Shown here: piece by piece, positions 8,055 to 54,876 of the stretch | Layout of the letters: every line of letters begins with the position of its first letter | Position numbering within the stretch: position 1 is the first letter of the stretch | Source: Naegleria gruberi | Lineage: Eukaryota | Reading direction: 5' to 3' (one strand) | NCBI GenBank assembly: GCA_000004985.1 | Contig: GG738848.1 | Length of the DNA: 64,000 nucleotides | Made by a program: the position numbers and the translations under genes | Notes under the pieces: model-generated | What the model saw: only the letters and a program-made list of their open reading frames with translations | The model's database searches: none | Told to the model about the DNA's origin: nothing

Positions 8055-11000
8055 TTATTCCAAGTCAACTCTCATTTGTTTTGCAAAGTTAACCTTTAAA
8101 TCCTTCTGTTTCAAAAAGTCATCATATAATTGGGAAGTTATAAATCTTGAGAATGTATCTTCCATATTCAATTCAATCTGTGCTTGCAAATCATTGAAAC
8201 AATCAGCAATTTGCTTTCTCAATCCTCCCTCAGACGAATCCATCATTTCCAAATCCTTATTTTCAACATTCACTTGCTTGTACAAGAGTATGAATTTCTT
8301 TCTGGTCGTTGATGGCACATTCACTTCACAAACAGCATTCGAAACCATGAATAAATCATGAATATTTTTCAAAAAGTCTGAAATTCCATCCAAATATCTT
8401 CCACTTGTGAATAGTTCATTATTCAATAGATAGTCATAGAGATAAATATTTTCAGTTGAGAATTCTGATTGACAGAATTTTTCAAATACTTGACGTGCAT
8501 CTTGATCTTGCAAGAATATTGACAACTTGGAAATATTTCCAATCTTGTCCAAGTTGACCTTCTTTTGAATGTATAATTTGAGAAGGATGAGTAAGGAGAA
8601 ACCACCAAATACCAAAACATAACAGAATTGATACAAAACTTCCATAATAAATACAGCAACATCATATTTGAGTGCTGTATCATAAACAGTAGTTCCCTTA
8701 AATCTATATTCATTACTGGTCAACCCAAGAGATTGTTGAACAATTAGCAAGGCAAAGTAAACCAAATAAATAGCCATTTCAGTTCTAAAGAATAGTGGAG
8801 AATCTAATGAGAAAACTTGAACTCCAGCTCTGCTGACCTTTCCCTTAATATTCGAAATTCTAATTGTGGTCTTCTTTCTTAATGAATTCAAATCGGTTGA
8901 TCCCATCGATTCCAAATTTCTGAAACCTCCTCTACTTCTCTTTCTATAATAAGAAACTGAAATGTCAATAATTGCCACAAGTGAAATAATGATACTAAAA
9001 AGGAAGATAATGACAGTGTATGAAATGGACACAATATATGTATAGGTTTGTGCAGGAATGACATTGGTTCTCACTAAAATTACCCACAAAGTCCAATACA
9101 AAATATTCAAAATTGCAAATGAAATGATTATTGACATGAATACACGAGCAGATGTCAAAACCTTCAAAAATCTGAATCTTACTGAACCTTTCGGTTTGTG
9201 TGTTGAGATTTTTCCATATAAAAGTTTGAGTAATTCAAATCTCACAACTTGAATCACATAGGAAAGAATTGCTGTCAAATTCAAAGTGTTTACAATGATC
9301 ATTGTAACGTTACCAACAATATTCGCAGAATTTTGTTCTTCTTCCCAAATATTGGTATTTGTTTGGAATAAATAGTCAATTAGGACAGATCTCTGAACTA
9401 TGGAAATCAAAATACTTTCTGTCAGTAAAGCAATCATTCCCAAATAAGGTGTAATTAATCTGGACGAAACTGGTTGCTTATTTCTGAAAATAATCAACAT
9501 GACCAATACGAAACCAGAAAGTAATGTAAACACCACACCAAATGCAATCTCAGCATAGTACAGTTTGGAGATTTCCACAGCTTGTGCAATGGTTGGACTT
9601 GATTTGTCATTAGTTCCTGTAACATTAGTTTGTTTGTATTCGATAAATGTGGAAAATTTTGTTGTGTGATTGGAGCTACAGTTGACTTGATTAGCAGTCA
9701 ATCCAATGAATAACATTCCCTTAGTCTTCCAATTTTTACAGGTTTCGTCCCAAAATTTACAAACAATTTCAGTTTCGTTAGTAAACTTGGTAAATTCTTC
9801 TTTGGAAATTGCCAAATTAAGAACGATAGGATCTGCTAAATCAGAAAGTTTTGTCAAATTATAGTTTTGATAATATTTAAAATCAATAATTGAGGATGCT
9901 GTCTTGTTTCCATTAGCATCTACATTCTTGGCATAGGTGACAGATGACAATCCAATGACAGCATTTGTACCTCCAGTTGACTTGGCAATACTTGCAATAT
10001 TCAGTACAACACTACTGTTAAATCCACTTTCCAAAATATTTTTCACAACTGGAGTACTGACAGGTGTGGAATCTGGATTAGTCTGACTGGCAGATGTCTG
10101 AGAAGAATTGGATGGAGCTGTAGTGGTCTGTAACACAATCGTAGCAACAGTTGTGACAATTGCTGGACTTGAATATGTTTCACTTGGAATGGTAACTTGA
10201 GTTTCAGTAGTAGTTGCGGAGGTACTCGTGTTATTCTTATTCGAATCATCAGAAGATGTTGATCCAGTGGAGCTTAATACAGTTGGAACTTGTCCTTTCA
10301 TAACTAGAGTATTAAAAGTTGTCAATGTTTGCTCGACAGTTTCTTGAACAGTGACAGCTGGCGTGGAAGGTGAAGAACTTGAATCAGTTGTTGAAGTGTT
10401 AGTTGAGGTATTGTCTGTACTAATGATATTCGACAAAACTTGCAAAGTACTTGTCAAGACTTCGGTAGAAACCTTTGATTTAACATAACCATAAGTATTC
10501 AGCTCAACTGTGTAAGTGTCAACAACGTTTTCCATGTAAGTATCAACTTTCTTGGTGACTTCTGTTACAATCTCAGTGGTAACCTTCTCAGTTTCCTTAG
10601 TTAGAACATTCAAAGCTGAAAGAGCAGTTTCGGCATTTTCTTGACTAATCTCAATAGCAATGACTTTTTGTAAAATAACTTCTGGAGTAATCTCAATTGA
10701 CTGATCATACAAGAGAACATTCTTCAACTCGTAACATGTTGAATTCATTAAATCTGCAGTCGAATTAGGATAAGAAGTTACAATGACACTTCCAATTGAG
10801 TATTCTTGAAGATTTCCATTAACATCTTGGACAAATGCAATAATTGGAAGAGAATCGTTGGTTACGAATGGAAGCGGAAAGGTTATATCACTAACCGTCG
10901 TGAATTGTGTAATTCTAATAGATTTTTGTAAAGTAGGATGGAAGAAACCATAAGCAAACGAAAGTGGTTGTAATTGGAAATCAGCAATCCAACCACTTGA

Positions 11001-13797
11001 TGAAATATTGAATCTTGTGGCAATAGCAACACCTGTAGATGGTTCAATAGTGATGACATCTGGTATTTTAGGTAAACTCAAAACAGGAATCTCAATAAAT
11101 GTAAAGAAATTTTGTAAACCATTTCTGAAATTCAAATCAACCGTAATTTTTGTAATATCCAATGACTCTAAACTCACAACAGTGCTCAGTGACAATGGAG
11201 GTGACAATAAAATTCCAAATTGATTTCCATTTCCGTTCAACATTCCATTTGAAGATTTCAATAATTGAGTGCTTGATAAACTTCTCAATTTGATTGAGTA
11301 ACTATAACTGAATGAACAATCTTGATAGAGACAATTGAAATCTGAAACTTGAGAATAATCAGATAATGTAATATTGGAAATAATTGCTGATAATTGAACT
11401 TGTTTGGAGGTGTGTAGGTAATAAGTTGGTATTCCATAGGATTCTAGAGATTGAACTGCTCTGAATGTTTGGGAGGTAACCTGTACTACAAAGTCAAACA
11501 ATTGAGATTTGATGGAAGTGTCAATTGTTGTACCATAAAGTGTAAAATAATAGCTACCAGTATTGACATTTGAAAAGTCCAATGAGAAGGAATCAGTACT
11601 TTGGAATGTAGTTACCAACTCACAATTCAAACATATTAATGTAAACATTAAGTTTTGAATTGGATATTCTGTGGCAGTGACAGTAGCTGTCACAACTTGT
11701 GAATCACCCTTGACAATTAAGGTAGATGATAAGGCTGCTGAAACATGGTAGATTAAAATATTTTGACAAACTGAACCTCCGTAAATAGGAATACAAGAAC
11801 AAACATCAGGAGCTGAACATTGACCATGCCCAGAACAAACAACATCTGACACTGAGGAATTTCCATAACAATTGAAGGATTGACATACGTCTCCATAATA
11901 ACCAGCTTGACAGAAACATTTGGTAGATGTCAAGGCCAATCCACCATGTGTACATTGATTAGAGATAGTTTGAGGAACATCATCGCTCAGTAACATACTC
12001 AAACTAAACTGGAATGAAGTTTCTAATGATTCTGAATTGTAATCATAGAAAGAAAGCTTAAACTGATAAGCACCGGCAATATCATAACTATTAAAACTTC
12101 CTTCAAGTGAATATTTCGAATAATTGTAAAAGTTTCTATCAAAAAAATGTTCGAAAGAATTCACAGAGAAACTCTGCACAATAGAACTTGTGGAATTTGT
12201 GTAAATTAAACTGCTAATCTCAAAATGGCTCTCCAGATATAAATCAACATTGACTTTTAGATTGGAATCGAATGAAACTTGGAAATTATTTGGATAGACT
12301 GAGAAATCAAAGTTTTGATTGTCAACAGTCAAAGATTGTGAAATACTTTGAGTGATCATCCACAAGTTAACACTCACAGTCGCATTGTATATATAGTTAT
12401 AACACAAATCACCATGAAAATGACCATCTTGATCAACATATTGAGCTGACAGCGAAATGTCAAGTTTCCAATAATTTCCAAAGGTTGTCTTTCTCACTGA
12501 CGAACTTTCCAACAGTGTACTCAAAGGAATATAATTAGATGTATACGATTGTGTCAGCTCAGTGTCATTCTTTTCTAAAAGTGTCAATTTGATAGATTTC
12601 TCTTCATGATAATTCATACAACCTGTCAAATCATAACCAGAATCATCAGAAAAGAATAACTGATGAGTGTACACATCTGATCTTCCATAATAGGCAATAA
12701 ACTTAATACCACTTCCATCTGGTGAAATAATTCCAGTAATGTTCACATTAGGATAATAATCAATGTCCATAGTTGAGTTGGTTGAGTTATTGTTTGTGGA
12801 ATTATTGTCAATGATTTCTTCGTAGAGTTTGAAGAGTTCTCGTTTGTGAGTGGTACTTGGTTTGGAATGTTGTATTTCGTCTGAATCGTCCATGATAGTT
12901 TTCAATTTGTTATTCGAATCGACCATACGAAGAGAACCAGTTCGTGAAATGTAGAAAATTTCTTCTTCGCCCCAAACTGGAGAAACTCTCAACTTCATAA
13001 CATCTAGGAAGGCATGTTTAGCAAGAGTTTCGTCTGGCGATTCATCGTGATACTTGTTCAATCTCCCACCAATAATATCAAAAGTCAAATCTGGTTGAAT
13101 TCTCTTAATAAAAGTTCCATCAGAACAATAAATTATTCCATGTTTGATGTCAAATGTAAAATAACCAAAAGCTGTTTACAAAGTTCAGTAATAATACAAT
13201 TATTCGAAACTTACTTCCTTTCACATCACGAATAGTACCATCTTCAATCTTTCTAATCAAATTTGTTCTGTAATCGTAGAAATAAATGGTTTCACTCATT
13301 GCGTCTTGAGCCACATGTCCAGGTCGAATACATTCGTCATCATTAGTTTCGTCCTGACATTCATATTTGCTTCCAGCGAGAATGACTTTGTATCCTGAAA
13401 GTAAACGTTTCTTGATGTGATTTCCAGTCGAGTAAATAATTTCATCATATTCAGTCATAAAAAAACTCTGAATTGTTTCTACACTTTCCTCTACAAGAAT
13501 TGACGAATCTCCAAATAAACTAAGCGAACGAATTTGTGTCTTGTTGTGAAGATAAAGCACATGTTGATTCTCCCCGCTTCCATCCACCAACTCTGATATT
13601 TTACATGCCTCTCCACATTCAAATCTTGCAACAATATTGTTATCCTTTAGTTTACGAATTTCTTCTCTATTCGAAACCAATAATTGTCCTTCTTTAGAGA
13701 ATGTGAAGGTGGTGGCAGTTGACTCCACATGGCTGTGCACCAACAACACCAACAACCAAGAAAATACAACCAAGATGCTCAAACAATTGCTTGCCAT
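8055..13797 (-). CDS. Adhesion-GPCR-like receptor with C-terminal RGS domain (signal peptide, beta-propeller-like N-terminus, EGF-like Cys repeats, S/T-rich stalk, GPS motif, 7TM, RGS); 2 exons
   Basis: Exon 1 is 13215-13797, from ATG; N-terminus MASNCLSILVVFSWLLVLLVHSHVES is a signal peptide. A 43-nt GTAAGT…AG intron lies at 13172-13214 (phase 1). Exon 2 is 8055-13171. EGF-like CFCQAGYYGDVCQSFNCYGNSS…CSGHGQCSAPDVCSCIPIYGGSVCQ. GPS-like CKFWDETCKNWKTKGMLFIGLTANQVNCSSNHTTKFSTFIEY immediately before seven hydrophobic helices. C-terminal FEKFCQSEFSTENIYLYDYLLN…FSRFITSQLYDDFLKQK matches the RGS-box consensus. Confidence 0.75.
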
Positions 13798-15061: not shown

Positions 15062-18000
15062 ATGAAAGAACCCGTCCAAAAATTGTCGCAGCATCAGCAT
15101 AATTATCAAGCACTTTATCATCTTCGGATTAATCATATGAAATTCTTATTCACCCTTATTAAAATCATTATACTAGCAACAACAACAATAATATTATTGA
15201 GTAGTAGTAGTGACAGGTTCTTATTAGTGGTTCTCTCGAGTAGTACGAGTGGTATTATCAATATTTCGCCGAAAAATCCACAACTTGACTCGGTGCAGTG
15301 GAATGATGAGAGGGAAATTTGGTTTGCACAATCTTGTCCTCTTTCTGGATCGAATAAGAGGTGAGTATTTTCATCACCATCATTGATAATTAATTTTTAT
15401 ATATTATTGATCTGTTTCAACGCTTGCAAATGAACTGTTCACTTCCTTAATATATATTACAACATCATTAATAATTTTTAACTGCTTGCACACATGTATA
15501 TAAAAGATTGGGCATTGAAATGAGGGATGGAATATTGGCTGCCTTTCATGAAGCCAATTCAATAGGAGGCATTTGGGGCTCTAAGAAATTAAAACTATTA
15601 ACTTTTGATGATGCCTACGAACCAACCAATACTAAACAGAATACCGACTTTTTCCTATACAATATAACACCACCGAATACTTCCCTTAATTATGAATCCT
15701 ATTTTTCACAGAATTCCCAATACAGAGAACAGATGAAGAATGTGAAATTGTTTGGATTGTTGGGATTTGTGGGAACACCAACAACTCAGGCTGTATTTGG
15801 AGATGTCGTTTCGAATTCCTTTCCTTTGATTGGGCCTTTTACTGGGGTTGGTTGGCTGAGAACACCATTCTACCCGAATGTTATTAATGTGAGAGCTTCC
15901 TACGATGATGAAACAGCTGCTATGGTCGACTGGCTGATAAATGTCAAGCTCATTAGAAAGATTAGTGTCATGTATCAAGCTGATAGTTTCGGTCAAGCTG
16001 GTTTGAATGGAATTAAACGAGCTTTGGTCGATTATCTCAAAATACCAATTCGCTCCATAGGTAGCTATCCAAGAAACACTCTTCAAGTAGAAGATGCATT
16101 TGCTGAAATTGGTAAAGGTTCACCTTCAGCAATAGTTTGCATTGGAACTTATGCTCCTCTGGCTAAATATATCAAAATGGTAAAGAACATGGCATTTGCA
16201 ACGAATGGAAATAATAATGGATATGAAAATGCTCAGGAAATAATCATCCTGACTGTTAGTTTTGTTGGTTCTTCTGCTTTGGTAAGTGAATTGCAGTCAA
16301 GCGCCCCAATTTCAAACAAGTTTGGCTCAAGTTATTATACAGACAATGTGGTCATTACACAAGTGGTTCCTTCACCATTTAATTTGAGTTATCCTATTGT
16401 GAGATCCTATCAAAAGGCAAGAAAATCATACATACTTTCGAATAATCCTTCGGCTAATCTTTCAGATTTTGTTCCCTCTTTCATAGAACTGGAAGGATAC
16501 ATTGTAGGAAGATTTGTAAACAGTGTGCTACAGAAAATGTCTGGAAATTTGACCAGATCAAACTTTTTAGCGACTTCCTATTTTGGAGGAAGTAGAGCTG
16601 ATGTTACAATTGCAGATTCTTCAATAGGAGATGCATCTGGAGGGGTTTTCAATTTTGATGGAATGCAATTGGGACCTTATAGATGGTGTGACTCAGTCAA
16701 TCTGATCGATATGAATTTACCTTATTCTAATGGTTTCGTATTACCAAGTCAAACTTCGGCCAGCAATAGCAGCGCATGTTCTTCTTTCAATTGTAATCAA
16801 GGAATGAAAGTTGTGTACAAGAGCTCTATCGACATCAAAAACTCCTCAGTTTCCTTTTCTGTATTTGGTGATTTATTTTCTTGGTATAATTACAAATCTG
16901 GAAGCTATTGCATTTCAGATCCAGTTCTTGTAAAGAAACCTCTTTTATTTGGCCAATCAATTAATACAGCATCAGGTGATTTCACTGAAGAACTCATGTT
17001 AAGAAAAGGAATTCTGGCTGCATTCGCTCTTCACAATCAAGGATTGACGTCAAATCAACAAAAATTAGAACTCTTAACAATGTATCATTCAGGAACAAGT
17101 GAAATGTTGAAGAATACGAAGGAATTTGTAGAGATTCATCATGCTCTTGGATTATTAGGATATTCTTCAACTAATTTGAATGTTGACATGTTGTCGAAAG
17201 CAATGACAGACAATTCATCTCAACTGAATGGTATTGCATTGGTGGGAACTGCTTCTACTATTAATTCGATGGATTTCAGATCAAGTTTCTTCCAAAATAT
17301 TATTCACGTTCATAGTTCCATTTTAGAACAATTAGGAACTATTGTGGATTACTCAATTAACACTCTAGGTAGAACAAGAATATCCATTGTTTATAGTAGG
17401 AATCAAGATTCGATGGCAGCTTATTCGATTCTTAACGAAATATTGTCAAGTTTAGATTTAAAACTTGATTCAGAATCGTGTATTCAAAACGAAACTTTTA
17501 TTTCAACTGATACAATCATCAGCGATCTATCTTTGAATGGAGCTAATCCTCAAATCATCATCTTTGCATTCCCTTCAAATGTAAATAATATTGGATCAAT
17601 CATTTCTTCCATTCAACAAACTTTTTCAACAGAACCAAAGTTTAGAAATGAATTGACCATATTTATGATCAATTCATTCTTTAAAGAAAATGTAGAGGTT
17701 GAAATATTACCTTGGATTTCATCTCCCAAGTTGGATAATGTCAAACTAATGTACGTGTCACATGTTCCATCCATAAATGGAACAGCTCACATTTCCATTG
17801 AAAAGTTTAAGGCAGCTATGGAGCTCTACTCTCCAGATCTTTCAAATTTATACAATACCAAAGTGTTGGAAGGTTTCTTTATAGGAAGTTTCATCAGTAC
17901 AATTATGGAAAATCTTGGAAATGAACCAACAAGTCAAAATTTAATCGAAACTATTTATAAGGTAAAGACATTTATCAATTTCCAGACTACTTTTGGTGCA

Positions 18001-20532
18001 TTTTCAGAGTCTTCCACAAGTCCATGTAATTTGGGAATGAGAATGAGTTATATTTATGGGCTTTCGAATAGTGGAGTTTCAGAGATTGCCACGAGAGATC
18101 ATTCTTCAAATTGTGGACTACACAGCTATGTTTCAACAAGAACTTCTGTCATTCACAGTAAGATAGATAGACCAATCTTACTTGGAAGATTAATTCCATA
18201 CAAAAAGGATGAAAATTCATTGCAAAATAAGATTGAATTGCTGAGTGAAGTTTCGACAATTGACATGGATGATTATGCCAGAGGATTGACTACCTATCTA
18301 AGTTATTTATCCTCAAAACAGTCTTACCAAAGTGTCAAGACCAAGAAAATCCACTTACTCACCGAGTATTACAGTTTAACCTCAAGTGGCAAAACTTTTT
18401 CGGACAAGTTGACAGCTCTCATCCAAAAGAATAAGATTTTCGCTCTCGTTGGTTCCATCATTAAATTCGACGAATCTACACTTAGCACTAATGACAAAAT
18501 AGATCAAATCTCCAAAATCCTTTCGAATAACAATATTCCACTCATTGATTCTCTGACAGGAAGTATTCGAATGAGGAAACCTTTTTCACAAATGTTTGTA
18601 AACATTGGTCCTTCGTTGTTGGATCAAGGAATTGCTTTTATTAATTATGCAAAGAGTAGATTTGGTCAAATTGCAATTGTTTATCAAGATTCAGAGTATT
18701 GGAAAGGAGCTTTGGATGAGATTGTAAACTTTTGTAGAATTGAATCGATTACAATAGGTCAATTGAGAGCTATAGATATTTTCAAGTCAATATCAGATCA
18801 AACAGATCATTTTGAGTCATTTTTGAAGGAGAAGGAAGATGTGGCTATATTTATTTTGGCAAATGACGTTCATTCAGCTGAAATTGTTAAATTGACATCT
18901 GTCACACACAAGGCAAATAGTTTTACTAATAATATCTTGTTTGGAATTCCTGTAGAGTCTGCTACCATTGATTTTGAAAGTGCAGTGATGAGCTGTTCCT
19001 CCCTTAGAAATGAAACATCTCCCTTGATTAGTAGTTTCGTTTCTGGTAAATCAGATTCTGAACTAATGTCAATTGTCAGCTCTTACATTTCATCAAACAA
19101 GTTATTAATTACCAAATCCATGTATTCACCCAACTACATCTCCCAAACTCATGATCAATACTCATTTTCCACAAGATTTTACACTCAATTTGCTGAATTT
19201 TCAAATTACCCAAAAGCAAATTATTTCACATTCGAAGGATACGTGATGGGTTACTTTATAGACATGATGATGGGTAGTATCTATCAATCTCAAGGTATAT
19301 CTGATCAAATATCTGATATTGCCTCTCAAGATTTATTAGACGCAATTTATTCAAATTCAGTTTTTGATATAATCTTTAAAAAGATTGGTCCTATGGGATA
19401 TACATGTTCTAACAATACAGAGGCAAGATCTACATGTGAAGATTCTTCCACTTTGGTTGTTGGTTGTGGGTGCAATCAGGGAGCCAAAGCGGTCTATTTG
19501 TCTGGATTGGCCAATTTCACACTTTCTTATAATCAAACTAATCTCAATTTCTTTGACATTTCTGATTATTCCCTGACTTTCAGAACATGTGGAGTTGAAG
19601 CTGTCGTTCCTTCCTTGTCCATCATTGCCATTATTTTCATTGTCATTGGTTCCTTACTCGCTGTATTTATCCTAATCCTTTCTCCAATTCTGAGCTATCG
19701 TTATTACATCTCCAAAAAGGCAATTAAGCATGCACCAACTTCCAAGAATGGTAAATTAGCTTGCTGTTTCACTGATGTCCAAAACTCTACCGTTTTGTGG
19801 CAATCCAATGAAAAGGCAATGAGAGAAGCTTTAGTCATTCACAATCAAATAATGAGACGAAACTTGGAATTATGCAATGGATTTGAAGTCAAGACCAATG
19901 GTGATAGTTTCTTTGTAGTTTTCAAAGATCCAGTCGATGCACTTGATTGGTGTGTCTCTGTCCAACATGATTTACTACATGCCAAATGGCCAGCTGATTT
20001 ATATAGTATGTGGGATTGTAGACCTGAATGGGATGAAGAAAGTAGACGAATGATGTGGTCAGGGGTGAGAGTTAGAATGGGATTACACTATGCACAGGCT
20101 GATTATGTCTTTGATAAGGTCATGAAGAGACCTGATTATTTTGGAACTTGTGTGAATACTTCTGCCAGAGTGGAGGCAATGGCCCATGGTGGACAGATTT
20201 TAGTGACTGAGGAATTCTTTTTGGAAACATGGAGGATTATGAAGACATATTTGTATTCGAATGTAAAGTTTCAGGAGCAGAATTATTATGGCTATGTCCA
20301 CGATATAACTTTGGCCATGTCGAATCCGTTATTGAGCCAAACTGCTTCCTTTACGCAAGATTCAAGTTTCAATAATACGAATAATACGAATAATACTTCA
20401 ATGGTTTCTGGAACTCAGAGTTCTTCGAGTGGAAACACTTCAAAAACTCCAAAGAGTACAGATGTTTCCAGAAAGTTAAATCTGAACGCTGCTTCTAAAC
20501 GAAAGAGACCTAAACATGCTGAGATGATTTAG
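15062..20532 (+). CDS. Receptor-type adenylate cyclase: signal peptide, large periplasmic-binding-protein-like extracellular domain, single TM, class III nucleotidyl cyclase domain; 2 exons
   Basis: Exon 1 runs to 15360. In-frame ATGs at 15062 (MKEPVQ…) and 15137 (MKFLFTLIKIIILATTTIILLSSSS, signal-peptide-like). Donor aag ag|gtgagt at 15361, acceptor …ataaaag| at about 15506 (phase 2; junction uncertain by ±1 nt). Exon 2 runs to the stop at 20530-20532. TM region is AVVPSLSIIAIIFIVIGSLLAVFILILSPIL. The cyclase domain KLACCFTDVQNSTVLWQ…EVKTNGDSFFVVF…GVRVRMGLHYAQADYVFD…YFGTCVNTSARVEAMAHGGQILVTEEF matches class III cyclase motifs (metal-binding D, transition-state N/R). Same architecture as trypanosomatid receptor ACs. 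Confidence 0.8.
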
Positions 20533-28606: not shown

Positions 28607-29239
28607 TTAATGAAGTTTGGCAAGTTCTCCTTCAATGGCTTCCATTACTTCTTCTAAAACTGTATCACTTCCAGATCTGTACGAAACCTTTCCTTCACTA
28701 TCAATGACAAACTTTTCAAAATCTTCAACTATAGTCTTGAACGAACCATATTTAGTTAAATAATCACAAGCTGCAACTGGACCACTTGGTGATTCTGTTG
28801 ATTTGAGAATTGTCAAATCGTTATTAAAGAAAGAACCTGTCACTGATCTATCTTGAGTTGAGTTAGTGGAAGCATTCAATAATTGTAAAGTACGTTTCGA
28901 ATACAAATCATGATTTGGAATAACAATCAATTCGAAAGGTTTTCCATTCAATTTCAATTTGAATGAACTCAATTGCTTTAAATATTCTTTACAATGCTCA
29001 TTTTCAGTATTCATAAAGGCAACCAAACAAACTTTTCCCTTCATTTGATGTAAATCAATTCTATTATTGTTAATATCCTTTGTTACAAAGTTATAGAATG
29101 TAATTGGTTCATTCATTGCAGAATTGTGATATGAGGCAAACAACAAGCCTTGTTGTTTCTGATAGGATTGGAACATTGTCTTGTTTCTTGCACTTTTAAA
29201 GGACAATTTGTTAATTTGCTTTAAGGTTCTCGATAACAT
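28607..29239 (-). CDS. Glutathione-peroxidase-like thioredoxin-fold protein with N-terminal presequence; canonical peroxidatic Cys/Sec motif not evident
   Basis: ATG at 29239. MLSRTLKQINKLSFKSARNKTMFQ is basic, hydroxylated and free of acidic residues, consistent with a mitochondrial presequence. PITFYNFVTKDINNNRIDLHQMKGKVCLVAFMNT… and …DFEKFVIDSEGKVSYRSGSDTVLEEVMEAIEGEL parallel GPx segments FYDFxVKDIDGxxVxLxKYKGKVxLIVNVAS… and NFxKFLVDKEGNVVxRYxPTTxP. VASKCG is replaced by MNTENEHC. Confidence 0.5.
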   Translation of the reverse strand: MLSRTLKQINKLSFKSARNKTMFQSYQKQQGLLFASYHNSAMNEPITFYNFVTKDINNNRIDLHQMKGKVCLVAFMNTENEHCKEYLKQLSSFKLKLNGKPFELIVIPNHDLYSKRTLQLLNASTNSTQDRSVTGSFFNNDLTILKSTESPSGPVAACDYLTKYGSFKTIVEDFEKFVIDSEGKVSYRSGSDTVLEEVMEAIEGELAKLH

Positions 29240-29895
29240 TTTGTATGTGATTTAAATTATTTGATGATATTAATAAATGGATATTCAACTTTTTGTTGAT
29301 ATTCTACAATTTTGGAAATAGCACAGAAGAGTAGCAGTGAAAATAGCACAAAGGCTTTGATTTGTTTTTTTTGTGTTTTGATTAACAAGATTCTCTCTGC
29401 CAATGCACAACTTTTAAATCATGGCGCTCAAAAATGTGCAATGGAAGAATTAAAGAAAAATTCCGAAAAAAATTCGCGTTTTATTTTTGGTAGTGAGCTG
29501 CTTGTGTGATAATTTCCGAGTGATGCGAAGGCGACAAGATGACCATTTGAGTTTTGTATTGACAAGTGGCAGAACAGCTGGAAATGAATTGAAAGAACTG
29601 GAAAAGTAAGAATAGGAAGTGTGAAGGCTTGGTAAGAATAGTTTGAATGTGGTGAGGAATGCCTGCAGAGAGCAATATTCGCCATTTACGAAAGTTTGTT
29701 TCCACCACAATATTGTAATTGACCAACTGTAAATCGATTGTTTTACAAAGATAATTATCATGTTATCTTGGAAATCTTTCAAATAGTTTGCATTACAGAA
29801 ATGCATTTCAATATTCTGAACTATTAAGCTACATAATTTCACACACTCAATAAATTTCATTTAAATTTGAAAAAACTACTTTAAACTTTTTTTAT

Positions 29896-31311
29896 TTAGT
29901 TTTGAGCAGTGTATTCCTTCAAGATTTGCTTGATGAATGATTCGAGACCTTCAGTCTTAGCAGCTGGAGTAGCAGTGGCAGTTTGGTTGGTAGCAGTCTT
30001 TGGGGCAACAACCTTTGGAGCAACAACAACAGGCTTCAATTGCTTCTTAGCAGCATTGATCTTCTTAACCAACTTCTTCAAGTCAGCCTTCAAACCCTTC
30101 TTAGCAAAAGCCTTCAAGAAAGCCTTCTTCAATTGTCTCTTCAAAGCCTTCTTCAATTGCTTTCTGTTGAGCTTTCTCTTTGGAGCGGCACACTTTCTGA
30201 CCTTTCTCTTTGGAGCAGCACATCTTCTTCTTCTAACAATCTTTCTCTTTGGAGCACAAGTTCTTCTTCTTCTGACGATCTTTCTCTTTGGAGCACCACA
30301 TTTCTTGGCAACTCTTCTCTTCAAGAATCTTCTGATGAATTTTGGAGCTCTTCTTCTCTTTGGAGCAGCACATCTTCTTCTCTTAACAACTCTCTTCTTT
30401 GGAGCAGCACACTTTCTCTTAACAACTCTTCTCTTTGGAGCAGCACACTTTCTCTTTGGAGCTCTTCTTGGGGCTCTTCTGACAGATCTTCTTCTCTTTG
30501 GAGCAGCACACTTTCTTCTTGGGGCTCTTCTTGATGATCTTCTTCTTGGAGCTCTTCTGGCAGATCTTCTTGATGATCTTCTTCTCTTTGGAGCAGATCT
30601 TCTAGTGGATCTTCTTCTCTTTGGAGCAGATCTTCTTGATGATCTTCTACCACCTCTTCTTTGTTGTCTTCTCTTTGGAGCAGATCTTCTTCTTGGAGCT
30701 CTTCTAGCAGATCTTCTGGTGGATCTTCTTCTTGGAGCAGATCTTCTTGATGATCTTCTAGTGGATCTTCTTTGTCTTCTAGCACCTCTTCTGGCTTGTT
30801 GTCTTCTGGTAGCTCTAACTAACTTTCTCAACAACTTTCTGACAATTCTGACAGACTTGGCGAACTTTCTAGAATTCTTCAATTGAGCAACGAGAGTAAC
30901 TAATTCTTCCTTTCTGTTATCCTTCTTCAACTTGTTCAAGTATTTGACAATCTTGGTCAACTTTCTCAAATAAGTAGTAGCAACCTTCTTGGACAATCTT
31001 CTTCTTTCGTGGGAAGTAGAGGTAACCAAACCGAGATTCTTGATATTCTTCAACAACTTTCTCAAATATCTAACAGCTCTTCTCTTACTGGCTCTTCTTC
31101 TTCTTGGTGCTCTTCTCTTTCTATCATCACCTCTTCTTCTTCTTGGTTGGGCATCTCTGGATTGTTTTTCACGTTGATCACGGACTGTTTGCAAGAATTT
31201 TTGCAACATGGCTTCTTGGTCAGCTTGTTCAGTGGTAGCCATTTGAGCGGTGGCAAAAACAGCCAAGAACAAAACAGCCAAAATGGCGGCAAGAATAAAA
31301 CTGCTTCTCAT
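29896..31311 (-). CDS. Secreted hyper-basic arginine-rich repeat protein (signal peptide, then ~440 aa dominated by RRSAP(K/R)RRRS(T/S)RRS and KCAAPKRR(V/R) repeats)
   Basis: ATG at 31311. MRSSFILAAILAVLFLAVFATAQ is a signal peptide. The body is >40% Arg+Lys, with tandem ~10-11-aa repeats, regularly spaced Cys in KCAAPKRR units, and an A/K/V/P-rich C-terminus. Coding DNA is built from AGA/AAG/GCT/CCA/TCT/TTG codons, so the local GC is well above surroundings. The plus-strand ORFs over this interval (poly-L/F/G) are antisense artefacts. Confidence 0.7.
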   Translation of the reverse strand: MRSSFILAAILAVLFLAVFATAQMATTEQADQEAMLQKFLQTVRDQREKQSRDAQPRRRRGDDRKRRAPRRRRASKRRAVRYLRKLLKNIKNLGLVTSTSHERRRLSKKVATTYLRKLTKIVKYLNKLKKDNRKEELVTLVAQLKNSRKFAKSVRIVRKLLRKLVRATRRQQARRGARRQRRSTRRSSRRSAPRRRSTRRSARRAPRRRSAPKRRQQRRGGRRSSRRSAPKRRRSTRRSAPKRRRSSRRSARRAPRRRSSRRAPRRKCAAPKRRRSVRRAPRRAPKRKCAAPKRRVVKRKCAAPKKRVVKRRRCAAPKRRRAPKFIRRFLKRRVAKKCGAPKRKIVRRRRTCAPKRKIVRRRRCAAPKRKVRKCAAPKRKLNRKQLKKALKRQLKKAFLKAFAKKGLKADLKKLVKKINAAKKQLKPVVVAPKVVAPKTATNQTATATPAAKTEGLESFIKQILKEYTAQN

Positions 31312-32088
31312 TTTGAGTTTTCTTTGTATTTTTTTTTAGATGATGAGGAAAGTAAATGTCGCAACTTGCCTCGCATTTTATTGGCTCTTAGATGATTATA
31401 ATGACTACCATAGACGAGTGACAGCGGGTTAAGTTCTTATGACTGCTTGTGGAAACTGATTATGTTAATGATGATTATTGCAATCAAGAAGCAATTTAAT
31501 TGAAAGTGTGTTTTGTATTTGAAGGGTTGCAATACTGGAACTGGCATGAACGAATTGTACTACTACAGTTGAGAGCGCTATTATTGTTGATGAAACCTTC
31601 ATTATTGGTATTGAAGAATTCATGTTATCTTGAATATTTTCAGAAAAAAGAAACTAGACGAAAGATATCAAGAATATGATAAAGAATTAGAATTCTAATA
31701 TTCGATCACCTTTAAATTGAAACGCAGAACAGCAACGGACCAGAATTGATGTAAATATTGACAAGTTAAAATATTTCGATTATCTCATCATTATAACGGG
31801 TTGATTTGTAATTGGAACCGAATCACTATTGCTATCCCATTATTGGATTTAGAGCATTTAAAACAATTACAACAAATATTCAATGCTATTGAATGTTAAT
31901 TACGGAGAGTGTGGTATACTAAGAGAGGAGTGTGAAAAGTCCGTTTGTCCATCTAGATTTAATATTGTAAATGTTTGAGAATTAGATGAATAACACATAA
32001 TTCTATTAAATGGTGAAATGAGAAAAAAGCAGCAATATGAAATATTTGACATTGGGGAAGAATATCATAACAAAATAACAAAAAGTCA

Positions 32089-32160
32089 TAGCAAATCTAG
32101 GTTTCGATCCTAGGACCTATGGGTTATGAGCCCATCGCGCTTCCGCTGCGCCAATTTGCT
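32089..32160 (-). tRNA. Initiator tRNA-Met (CAU)
   Basis: Minus strand AGCAAATTGGCGCAGCGGAAGCGCGATGGGCTCATAACCCATAGGTCCTAGGATCGAAACCTAGATTTGCTA is 72 nt. It has A1:U72, anticodon loop CTCATAA with three G:C pairs in the anticodon stem, and T loop GATCGAAAC (A54/A60), the eukaryotic initiator hallmarks. It is near-identical in layout to human tRNAi-Met. Confidence 0.9.
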
Positions 32161-32627: not shown

Positions 32628-33359
32628 ATGGAAACTCAAATTGTAACAATGGAAGAAGGAACCTATGATGATATTTTGGAATGTTCAATTTTTTCTGATA
32701 ATACACCAACCAGTTCAAAGGAAATAACTTCATCTTTGGAAAGAAAATCTAAAAGAAAAGGAAGAAAACAATCAACTAGCACCAAAAGGAAAAGTGCTGA
32801 GATTGAAGAAGGAAAATCAAAAAAAAGAAAGTCAAATGAGGAAGAGGAATGTGATTTTATTTTGGAAAAAGGAGTTTTTACATTTGAACCAAGCTTTCCA
32901 GAGTGGAATCAAGTACCGAAGCCTGTTTTGGATACGTATAAGGTGGTTTGGGAAATGTTCGCAACTTGTGCTCGTTGTACTATCCATGAACAATTGGAAA
33001 TGAAGAACACAAGTAGAGTGCACCATATGGTAATTGGAAATTGTTTACCAACTGTATTTTATCTTGTATTGAAGGAATCAAAAGGAAAGTTCTATCAGTG
33101 GTATCAAAATGTAATGCAACATGGCATAAAGGTGAAACAAGATTGCATTCAATTTAGATTTAAAGATTGTTTGCCACCTCTAGATAATTTTGATGATTGG
33201 GCTGATTTTAAATTGAACATCACCAACGATACGTTCAAGTATGGTAAAAAAGAAATGGTGCACCACTTAAAGATTAAGTACATTTCTTTGACTTGCAATG
33301 TATCCTCTTTCCAAGTTTATACTTCATTCAAGTTTGAGAAAGAAATTATTTTACAATAA
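32628..33359 (+). CDS. Hypothetical 243-aa protein with basic NLS-like region (KRKGRKQSTSTKRK…KKRKS) and Cys/His-containing C-terminal half
   Basis: ATG-initiated uninterrupted ORF METQIVTMEEG… with no recognisable family. Confidence 0.45.
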   Translation: METQIVTMEEGTYDDILECSIFSDNTPTSSKEITSSLERKSKRKGRKQSTSTKRKSAEIEEGKSKKRKSNEEEECDFILEKGVFTFEPSFPEWNQVPKPVLDTYKVVWEMFATCARCTIHEQLEMKNTSRVHHMVIGNCLPTVFYLVLKESKGKFYQWYQNVMQHGIKVKQDCIQFRFKDCLPPLDNFDDWADFKLNITNDTFKYGKKEMVHHLKIKYISLTCNVSSFQVYTSFKFEKEIILQ

Positions 33360-53664: not shown

Positions 53665-54876
53665 TTAGAAGAGCAACATCTTTTCTGGATCTTCGATCAA
53701 TTCCTTAACTCTCTTCAAGAAAGTAACAGCTTCTCTACCATCGATAATTCTGTGGTCATAAGTCAAGGCAACGTACATCATTGGTCTGACAACAACTTGA
53801 TCACCAATAGCAATTGGTCTATTCTTTGTGGCGTGCATTCCCAAAATAGCAGATTGTGGAGGATTGATAATTGGTGTACCCATCAAACTTCCGAAAACTC
53901 CACCATTAGAAATAGTGAAAGTACCACCTTGCATATCATCAAGGGAGATGGCATTCTTTCTGGCCTTTTCACCCAAGTTAGAAATGTCTCTTTCAATTTG
54001 TGCAATTGACTTGCTTTCACAGTTTCTGACAACTGGAACGACCAAACCATTTGGAGTGGCAACAGCAACACTAATATCGACATAATCACGATAAACAACT
54101 TCATTACCATCAATGACACCATTGACAGCTGGAACTTCAGTAAGAGCAATAGAAGCAGCCTTACAGAAAGCACCCATGAAACCCAACTTTAAACCATCGT
54201 GACGTTCTTGGAAATCGTCTTGGTTAACCTTTCTCAATTCCATAATCTTCTTCATGTCAATTTCATTGAAAGTGGTCAACATAGCATAGGTGTTTTGGGC
54301 TTGCTTCAAACGTTCAGCAATCTTAGCACGAATACGTGTCATTTTAACTCTTCTTTCAGTTCTAGCGAGTCCATTGGCAGAAGTAGTTGGAGCTGATGAT
54401 TGTGTTGGTTTAGCTTCTTCCTTCTTTGGGGTTGGTGTTGGTGTGGCAGTAGGAGTTGGAGTAGAAGGAGTGGAAGCAGTTGTTGTTGTTGTTGTAGTAG
54501 TAGAAGGAGTGGAAGCAGCAGCAGCAGGTGTAGCAGTTGGCTTACCATCAGTATCAATGATGGCAATATCCTTACCAACTTCAACGGTATCCTTGGCATT
54601 AGCCAAAATAGCCTTCAAAACACCAGCTTCTGGAGCACGGATTTCCACAGAGACCTTATCAGTATCAATAGTACAAATGACTTCATCTTCAACACAAGCT
54701 TGACCTGGTTTTTTCACCCATTCATTGATTTCACCTGATGAGATGGAATCACCCATTGATGGAACCTTTATCATAACATCCTTCAAGAGAGAAGGAGTAG
54801 AGTGAAGGAAACGTTGTTGGGAAATGAATTTCTTGCTGGCCAAGATGCGTGATGATTGAACGATAGATCTTCTCAT
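53665..54876 (-). CDS. DLST: Dihydrolipoamide succinyltransferase, E2 component of 2-oxoglutarate dehydrogenase (mitochondrial)
   Basis: Single exon with ATG at 54876. Presequence [31 protein letters not shown]. Lipoyl domain …[49 protein letters not shown]… (lipoyl-Lys in TDKV). A/P/T-rich linker. Catalytic domain …[37 protein letters not shown]…[24 protein letters not shown] with the DHRxxDG active site. Confidence 0.9.

Follow-up and report, generated by a model that had tools for sequence, protein, structure and literature searches.

We analyzed a 64-kb window (64,000 nucleotides; GC ~33%) from Naegleria gruberi NEG-M, centering on a minus-strand gene that encodes an extremely basic protein, here called the polycation. 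The gene is an intact open reading frame (ORF) of 471 codons at 29896..31311 (-), with the ATG start at 31311 and a TAA stop codon at 29896-29898. An AATAAA hexamer overlaps the stop codon (29891..29896, minus strand) and is a possible polyadenylation signal. The first ATG lies in a good A-rich context, with no in-frame ATG before it, and a second in-frame ATG, corresponding to M24, is found at 31240-31242, directly after the predicted signal peptide; its -3 and +4 positions are A and G, respectively. The 471-amino acid product contains 115 Arg (24.4%) and 70 Lys (14.9%), with Asp and Glu together accounting for 3.4%, and the predicted mature protein has 449 amino acids, ~53 kDa, and a net charge of +168. 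A first-pass annotation of this DNA had put the Arg/Lys content above 40%; this stood for the mature part (41.0%, 184/449 residues after the signal peptide) but not for the whole protein (39.3%), and in both repeat zones the share was 51-53%.

The N-terminal third of the protein is not repetitive. It opens with a predicted signal peptide, assigned from sequence rules and family comparison (aa 1-22, MRSS followed by FILAAILAVLFLAVFATA; 31246..31311, minus strand), whose predicted site is A-T-A↓Q (the arrow marks the cut). This is followed by a near-neutral spacer (aa 23-55, QMATTEQADQEAMLQKF...; 31147..31245, minus strand), which holds M24, has a net charge of -1 (-2 over its first 20 residues), and is predicted to be helical with low to moderate confidence. 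Strong positive charge begins 33 residues past the predicted cleavage site, with a first basic stretch (aa 56-80, PRRRRGDDRKRRAPRRRRASKRRAV; 31072..31146, minus strand; net charge +13) that is absent from both homologs described below. Then comes a helical domain specific to Naegleria and delimited by phmmer alignments (aa 81-167, YLRKLLKNIKNLGLVTSTS ... SRKFAKSVRIVRKLLRKL; 30811..31071, minus strand). It contains the strongly amphipathic cationic helix SVRIVRKLLRKLVRATRR, with a hydrophobic moment of 0.94, and the AlphaFold2 confidence (predicted local distance difference test, pLDDT) was 76-85 over aa 111-170.

Two repeat zones, defined with Tandem Repeats Finder (TRF) and protein motif counts, make up the center of the protein. 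The Arg/Ser-rich zone (aa 168-262; 30526..30810, minus strand) consists of units like RRSAP(K/R)RRRS(T/S)RRS, has a net charge of +50 and no Cys, and is predicted to be disordered; its Ser-rich units span aa 176-262. The Cys-bearing zone (aa 263-382; 30166..30525, minus strand) consists of units like (K/R)C(A/G)APKR(K/R)(I/V)V(K/R)R(R)(R), with a net charge of +61 and eight Cys at positions 268, 289, 301, 314, 338, 352, 364, and 374, spaced 10-24 residues apart; it is also predicted to be disordered, apart from a short helix at aa 324-337. The AlphaFold model gave pLDDT<50 for the repeats and helices at either end of the protein. Altogether, 18 AP(K/R) units were counted between aa 192 and 392, with AP[KR]R matched 17 times in the whole protein; the 15 RS and six SR dipeptides all fall within longer RRS(A/T/S) units, and the protein has 98 overlapping dibasic positions. 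The arrangement of Ser-rich units, then units with one Cys each, and then a basic tail thus agreed with the first-pass annotation. The underlying DNA had also been described as a minisatellite, but it is not a uniform one: TRF reported short, imperfect arrays with periods of 33, 36, 39, 57, and 63 nt within 30202-30772, with 74-89% matches and 2-3 copies each.

The tail begins with Lys/Ala/Leu-rich amphipathic helices assigned from the predicted structure (aa 383-429, RKQLKKALKRQLKKAFLKAFAKKGLKADLKKLVKKINAAKKQLKPV; 30025..30165, minus strand; net charge +18), modeled as two helices at 383-402 and 406-429 with pLDDT ~80. After this segment come PVVVAPKVVAPK and a Thr/Ala-rich linker; sequence and predicted structure place a Pro/Val/Thr/Ala linker at aa 430-450 and a C-terminal amphipathic helix at aa 451-471 (GLESFIKQILKEYTAQN; together 29899..30024, minus strand). 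N442, in the linker, belongs to the only N-x-S/T sequon of the protein, and the C-terminus showed neither a KDEL/HDEL signal nor a hydrophobic end.

To find relatives of the polycation, we relied on an exhaustive HMMER (phmmer) search of 1.84e9 representative proteins. Three matches were obtained, and two were true homologs, both from Naegleria: XP_044545069.1 (E=4e-11), which is C9374_008892 of N. lovaniensis, and XP_002673235.1 (E=1e-8), which is the N. gruberi paralog NAEGRDRAFT_80992 (D2VRN0). The third match (E=3e-5), to a 747-aa helicase, was rejected as a homolog, since it reflected the low complexity of a KRSS tail. The same search detected no near-identical protein and no family member from N. 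fowleri. The N. lovaniensis locus was also matched by tblastn (5e-12), and no synteny was found between it and the polycation locus; within the 64-kb window, there were no paralogs of the gene. The region common to the homologs is the 87-residue segment at aa 81-167, with 36-43% identity, or 42-43% over the alignment of the domain, and 22 invariant columns in the three-way alignment. Conservation is highest at the motif (S/V)VR(I/F/L)VR(K/R)(L/I)(L/M)R(K/R)(L/F), which falls where the protein is at its most amphipathic. When this domain was searched against Pfam (E<=10), a sequence profile of the Protein Data Bank (PDB), and, using Foldseek and the predicted N-terminal structure, the PDB, only generic helical-bundle noise was returned (E>2).

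Outside this domain, the three proteins differ. The N. lovaniensis homolog contains 29% Arg+Lys and six phi-P-(K/R)-R units (FPRR, VPKR, LPRR, VPRR, APRR, and APRR), which shows that the basic unit predates the species split and was expanded about threefold, from 6 to 18, in N. gruberi. The Ser-rich sub-array, the eight Cys, and the K/A/L helical tail were found in the polycation only, and both homologs are devoid of Cys, so that by this comparison Cys was gained in the N. gruberi lineage along with the repeat expansion. The N. gruberi paralog carries a Q/T-rich tail in place of the basic repeats. In the NEG-M gene model, this paralog has 231 amino acids and ends in ...VTAPTTTTTI, and the allele found in the European Nucleotide Archive (ENA; L003:1324-2151) encodes 275 amino acids and runs on as ...VTAQQQQQQQPSDDEE..., giving an acidic tail; apparently, either the frame shifts in a (CAA)n run or the gene model of the reference is wrong. 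Collectively, these comparisons delineate a previously undescribed, three-member family restricted to Naegleria, with a predicted signal peptide and an 87-residue cationic amphipathic helical domain.

The signal peptide was called on the basis of sequence rules and conservation, and both agreed with its presence in the first-pass annotation. The N-terminus MRSSFILAAILAVLFLAVFATAQ has one basic residue (R2) and an 18-residue hydrophobic core (F5-A22) with a mean Kyte-Doolittle value of 2.84. These are classical features of signal peptides, together with A20 and A22 at -3 and -1 and the net negative charge of the 20 residues that follow. The cleavage site had been placed after Q23; the order A20-T21-A22↓Q23 after the hydrophobic core makes cleavage after A22 more likely. 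The hydrophobic N-terminus was unchanged in a second strain, and the paralog XP_002673235.1 begins with MKSFVKLAVVATLMMVLLLSAHSSVLA↓QQQ (ending SSVLA↓QQQ) in both strains. The annotated model from N. lovaniensis starts with MIHTSFA↓QQ, inside the apparent end of a signal peptide. An upstream ATG lies 47 nt before this annotated start and is one base out of frame (L002:5954-6000, PYSW02000036.1), and the addition of a single T to GGTCTTTGGCC gives MKSLIIFGLLAIVCAIMIHTSFA↓QQ (HTSFA↓QQ). The model of C9374_008892 without a signal peptide is probably the result of an assembly or annotation error, or of a recent frameshift. With this 1-nt repair, needed for N. lovaniensis only, the predicted cleavage sites of the family are ATA↓Q in the polycation, VLA↓Q in the paralog, and SFA↓Q in N. 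lovaniensis, and a signal peptide ending in A↓Q is a predicted feature of all three members. M24 is without a counterpart in the homologs, as neither has a Met after its cleavage site. A signal peptide found across the family argues against a nuclear basic protein starting at the downstream ATG.

Next, the locus was compared with that of the second strain, represented by an ENA metagenome contig (L001, from ERZ929261; 3,280 bp) that has a slightly different allele of the neighboring BtuE gene. The gene called on this contig encodes 470 amino acids and corresponds to the polycation with the changes G221A and A420V and deletion of K242. Of the 1413 aligned bases of the coding sequence (CDS), 3 differed (0.21%), and a single indel, of 3 nt, was present. 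The flanks on both sides (window 29240-29895 and 31312-31775 against L001) differed at 27 of 1104 bases (2.45%) and by nine indels of 5, 11, 1, 3, 18, 3, 9, 2, and 1 nt, most of them not multiples of three. Divergence was thus ~12-fold lower in the CDS (Fisher p = 1.7e-7), and for the neighboring BtuE CDS it was 0.32%. This is the signature of purifying selection on the ORF. It had been anticipated that the repeat copy number would vary between strains; in this single comparison the unit count was equal, and the 3-nt deletion was the sole change in length. We also observed that the ~130 nt directly before the ATG were nearly invariant between the strains, with 1 substitution, which is consistent with a constrained promoter or 5' untranslated region.

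The codon choice was strongly skewed, with AGA used for 113 of 115 Arg, AAG for 65 of 70 Lys, CCA for 23 of 24 Pro, and GGT for all 8 Gly. The effective number of codons (ENC) was 28.6, the strongest bias in the window, where 12 other ORFs ranged from 35.6 to 48.1. As an internal reference for high expression, we took a clearly housekeeping gene, the 2-oxoacid dehydrogenase E2 acyltransferase with lipoyl and catalytic domains (53665-54876, minus strand), whose bias (ENC 30.8) was comparably strong, unlike that of any further ORF in the window. In the 261 non-repeat codons of the polycation gene, the ENC was 30.9 and AAG was used in 39 of 42 cases (background 47%), indicating that repeat duplication by itself does not explain the bias. 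Codon bias above background was also found in both Naegleria homologs. The resemblance to highly expressed genes noticed at first pass was hence upheld, and this bias, typical of high expression, suggests that the gene is probably abundantly expressed. The strain comparison, the codon usage, and the homologs are three independent lines showing that the ORF is a real functional gene.

Other searches gave no further relatives. In word-indexed homology searches, neither the full protein nor aa 1-175 nor a three-sequence profile gave any match, and since the profile missed its own members, these negatives are uninformative. No relatives were found in Joint Genome Institute metagenomes, scanned both for degenerate patterns of the family and for an exact 22-mer taken from the Cys unit, or in viral contigs, and the polycation had no Pfam match at E<=0.01. 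A collection of 15 billion proteins that holds the products of both neighboring genes contained neither the exact 471-aa product nor its M24 or M35 variants, the antisense ORF, or the ENA allele. The polycation is, then, effectively invisible in the protein collections searched, which is a statement on these collections and not on the reference gene model. Low-complexity basic proteins seem to be systematically under-represented in, or missed by, such resources, and a failure to find them calls for caution. A literature search covering Naegleria arginine-rich proteins, the cyst-wall proteome, the accessions, and the ENA project returned nothing specific to this protein.

As for the genomic setting, the minus-strand neighbor at 28607-29239 is an exact match to XP_002682033.1 (a BtuE-domain protein, D2V1D6), and on the 5' side, the plus-strand ORF at 32628-33359 is an exact match to XP_002681890.1 (NAEGRDRAFT_62544, D2V1D8); both sit on a 712,659-bp contig of NEG-M. 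In the 1.3-kb intergenic region upstream of the polycation gene, there is a tRNA-Met gene with anticodon CAT (32089-32160, minus strand; Rfam tRNA, 64 bits). A scan for bacterial promoters and terminators was irrelevant to this eukaryote, and its sole terminator match was the T-arm of this tRNA. The window opens with a perfect, telomere-like (AAACCC)x74 tandem array (1-446), so that it starts at a chromosome or scaffold end and the polycation gene is subtelomeric, ~30 kb from that end; the array also explains the GC skew of -0.45 over the first 2 kb. Two divergent, intron-free ORFs of ~1,675 amino acids each, at 8055-13088 (minus strand) and 15508-20532 (plus strand), are receptor-like. One of the pair has EGF/GPS (adhesion-GPCR-like) and C-terminal RGS domains, and the other has periplasmic-binding/ANF-receptor domains and a guanylate/adenylate cyclase domain.

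To our knowledge, proteins this rich in Arg are nuclear or RNA-bound in nearly all cases, and the closest likeness in composition is indeed to eutherian protamine P1, to the SPKK and SPRRR motifs of sperm histones and of the hepatitis B virus (HBV) core C-terminal domain, and to RS domains, all of which share extreme Arg content with Ser beside Arg. The short S-(A)-P-(K/R)-R-R units of the polycation resemble both SPKK and SPRRR. Ser next to Arg is a potential site of phospho-regulation, and Cys, a further feature in common, could lock a condensate by disulfides. Unlike the polycation, protamines, HBV core, and RS proteins are nuclear or capsid-internal, have no signal peptide, and are far shorter or contain RRM domains. 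The protamine- and RS-like character noted at first pass is thus one of composition alone. A protamine or sperm nuclear basic protein was rejected as an assignment, with no Pfam match at E<=0.01 and a conserved signal peptide, and so was an SR splicing protein, with no RRM in the Pfam search. A linker histone H1 or kinetoplast-associated H1-like protein was also rejected: there was no linker-histone Pfam match, and the N-terminus is a hydrophobic core rather than an amphipathic presequence.

Cationic host-defense precursors (the cathelicidins PR-39, Bac7, and LL-37, Hydra arminins, and naegleriapores) resemble the polycation in combining a signal peptide with a leader that is not basic and a strongly cationic region. 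Both also feature Pro/Arg-rich units along with amphipathic helices of cationic character. In pattern only, SVRIVRKLLRKLVRA of the polycation resembles the part RIVQRIKDFLRNLV of LL-37. The polycation differs in being ten times larger than the typical peptides, in having no discrete units bounded by processing sites, and in carrying one Cys per unit. A cathelicidin or saposin-like (naegleriapore) precursor was rejected, as no cathelin or SapB match was found in Pfam and Cys occurs once per repeat unit, leaving a possible functional analogy. Plant extensins, the microsporidian PTP2, and the cement proteins of sandcastle worms are secreted repeat proteins of basic character that become cross-linked. 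In Giardia, a basic extension of 121 residues at the C-terminus of CWP2 undergoes processing and ends up in the disulfide-bonded material of the cyst wall (PMC2851657). With these four, the polycation shares basicity and a repetitive or low-complexity sequence and, by prediction, secretion, covalent cross-linking, and anionic partners, and it is set apart by the lack of a leucine-rich repeat (LRR) or other folded wall domain, by the absence of sequence similarity, and by a far higher Arg content and charge density. It may, at most, work like cationic host-defense precursors or basic wall proteins, as it is without their defining domains.

The protein is most likely a lineage-specific polycation of the secretory pathway, predicted to act as an exported binder of negatively charged material. 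At first pass, the candidate roles had been an extracellular binder of DNA/RNA or polyphosphate, a component of the cyst wall or an extrusome, and a toxin. Its N-terminus would direct co-translational entry into the endoplasmic reticulum (ER), with cleavage at ATA↓Q after A22, and the near-neutral 33-residue spacer would permit translocation. The mature polycation would travel the secretory/endolysosomal route and act in the lumen or outside the cell, and a charge of +168 on a largely disordered chain suggests that its action would be mainly by multivalent electrostatic binding of polyanions. The periodic Cys could be oxidized in the ER lumen to form inter-chain disulfides and disulfide-linked multimers, and phosphorylation at the many RRS sites could modulate the charge. 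The favored context is feeding or defense, where the polycation may bind, agglutinate, or permeabilize bacterial envelopes, or bind prey nucleic acids, either intact or as cationic peptides after cleavage at dibasic sites; the amphipathic helices would act on membranes.

We favor such a prey-directed role because the organism is a bacterivore, cationic amphipathic helices occur both in the family motif and at the C-terminus, expression is apparently high, and naegleriapores set a precedent. The C-terminal LKKALKRQLKKAFLKAFAKK helices share the cationic amphipathic character of the conserved family motif, and Naegleria makes the naegleriapores, which are antimicrobial peptides, from precursor proteins (PMC8296547). 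For the whole statement, that of a functional, probably abundant secretory polycation with a prey-directed or antimicrobial role, we estimate a probability of about 0.45. In a recent preprint, exogenous PR-39, an Arg/Pro-rich peptide, was shown to be toxic to N. gruberi and to enter its nucleolus (bioRxiv 10.64898/2026.08.23.746575), which makes it plausible that an endogenous polycation would be sequestered by membranes.

Several observations weigh against it. A kexin-like protease acting at the 98 dibasic positions would shred the repeats, a poor fit to the release of a defined peptide; one Cys per unit looks like a design for cross-linking rather than that of an antimicrobial peptide; and the SAP(K/R)RR units and the overall composition are closer to the DNA-binding SPKK, protamine, and HBV-core motifs than to known antimicrobial peptides. 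A known function is attached to 0/2 homologs. With regard to secretion itself, the 18-residue hydrophobic core is long for a cleaved signal peptide and might be an uncleaved type II anchor, the in-frame M24 directly after the predicted cleavage site would, if used as a start, yield a non-secreted basic protein, and the signal peptide in N. lovaniensis requires an assumed 1-nt frameshift.

The main rival to the prey-directed role is a structural protein of the extracellular matrix, such as the cyst wall, an ostiole plug, or a substrate adhesive, which we consider possible if rather doubtful. The polycation would then bind acidic or neutral wall polysaccharides or negative surfaces and become insoluble by intermolecular disulfides, and phosphorylation of Ser before export may keep it soluble. 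In keeping with such a role, Cys recurs every 10-24 residues along a 120-residue stretch and is even in number (8), the repeat scaffold is predicted to be disordered, the signal peptide is conserved, the gene is subtelomeric, and the repeats expanded in one lineage, which is typical for wall and adhesive proteins; the basic C-terminal extension of Giardia CWP2 (PMC2851657) is a precedent. However, neither a lectin nor a carbohydrate-binding domain turned up in the Pfam search, the paralog that has this N-terminal domain as well carries an acidic, Q-rich tail, and the housekeeping-level codon bias suggests high expression, which a gene used in encystment only may or may not show. Somewhat less likely than a wall protein, and put forward here as speculation, would be a "secreted protamine": an exported, 53-kDa polycation of charge +168 whose task would be to condense a polyanion, either in the lumen or outside the cell, with disulfides locking the resulting coacervate or matrix. 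Candidates for the polyanion are DNA from prey or the environment, polyphosphate, and acidic glycans, and the acidic-tailed paralog with the common N-terminal domain might be a partner. If true, this would be an extracellular assembly or prey-capture mechanism so far undescribed in protists, performed by a domain family confined to the genus.

We regard as unlikely an intracellular nucleic-acid binder of the protamine, H1, SR, or nucleolar type, produced from a start at M24 or with an N-terminus that does not engage the ER, in which the Arg-rich SAP(K/R)RR units would bind DNA or RNA. The R/S units, the R/K/C units, and the A/K/P tail do mimic protamine P1, SPKK-type motifs, the C-terminal domain of HBV core, and the tail of H1; the M24 codon, with its favorable -3 and +4 positions, lies exactly past the signal peptide, and exogenous PR-39 goes to the Naegleria nucleolus (bioRxiv 10.64898/2026.08.23.746575). 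However, the first ATG is also in a good context and is the earliest in frame, the hydrophobic N-terminus was kept unchanged in the second strain, the paralog and the N. lovaniensis protein have equivalent signal peptides with no Met after the cleavage site, and no RRM, H1 globular domain, or protamine match was obtained in Pfam. An uncleaved signal anchor, making a type II membrane protein that exposes the polycationic region to the outside of the cell or to the lumen of vesicles, appears improbable. It would account for the length of the core (F5-A22), and R2 before it with net negative charge after it predicts an N-in, C-out orientation; the presence in all three members of a small-x-small site with Gln next to it (ATA↓Q, VLA↓Q, and SFA↓Q) speaks for cleavage instead, and in each homolog, the hydrophobic segment is shorter and broken by polar residues. 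That the ORF is a non-functional repeat expansion left open by chance is hardly credible, even though ORFs of 325, 183, and 154 amino acids overlap the repeat DNA in further frames and the 15-billion-sequence collection, in which both neighbors are present, lacks the protein. The ORF continues beyond the repeats on both sides, for 175 codons upstream and 86 downstream, homologs exist, the divergence is ~12-fold less than in the flanks with an in-frame indel only, and the codon bias, the strongest in the window, extends outside the repeats.

Secreted cationic repeat proteins are known as a kind, and what is new here is a domain family found only in Naegleria with a large polycationic expansion in N. 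gruberi. Such a protein is easily overlooked, as trypsin would reduce the repeats to di- and tripeptides and low-complexity filters mask it in homology searches. Although no N. fowleri member was detected here, the genus includes this pathogen, and a genus-specific secreted family is, therefore, worth knowing. The conserved signal peptide and the codon usage of high expression suggest that a bacterivorous amoeba has an abundant polycation in its secretory/endolysosomal system or outside its cells, and this polycation could be an unrecognized antimicrobial or prey-handling factor, or a component of the matrix or the cyst wall.

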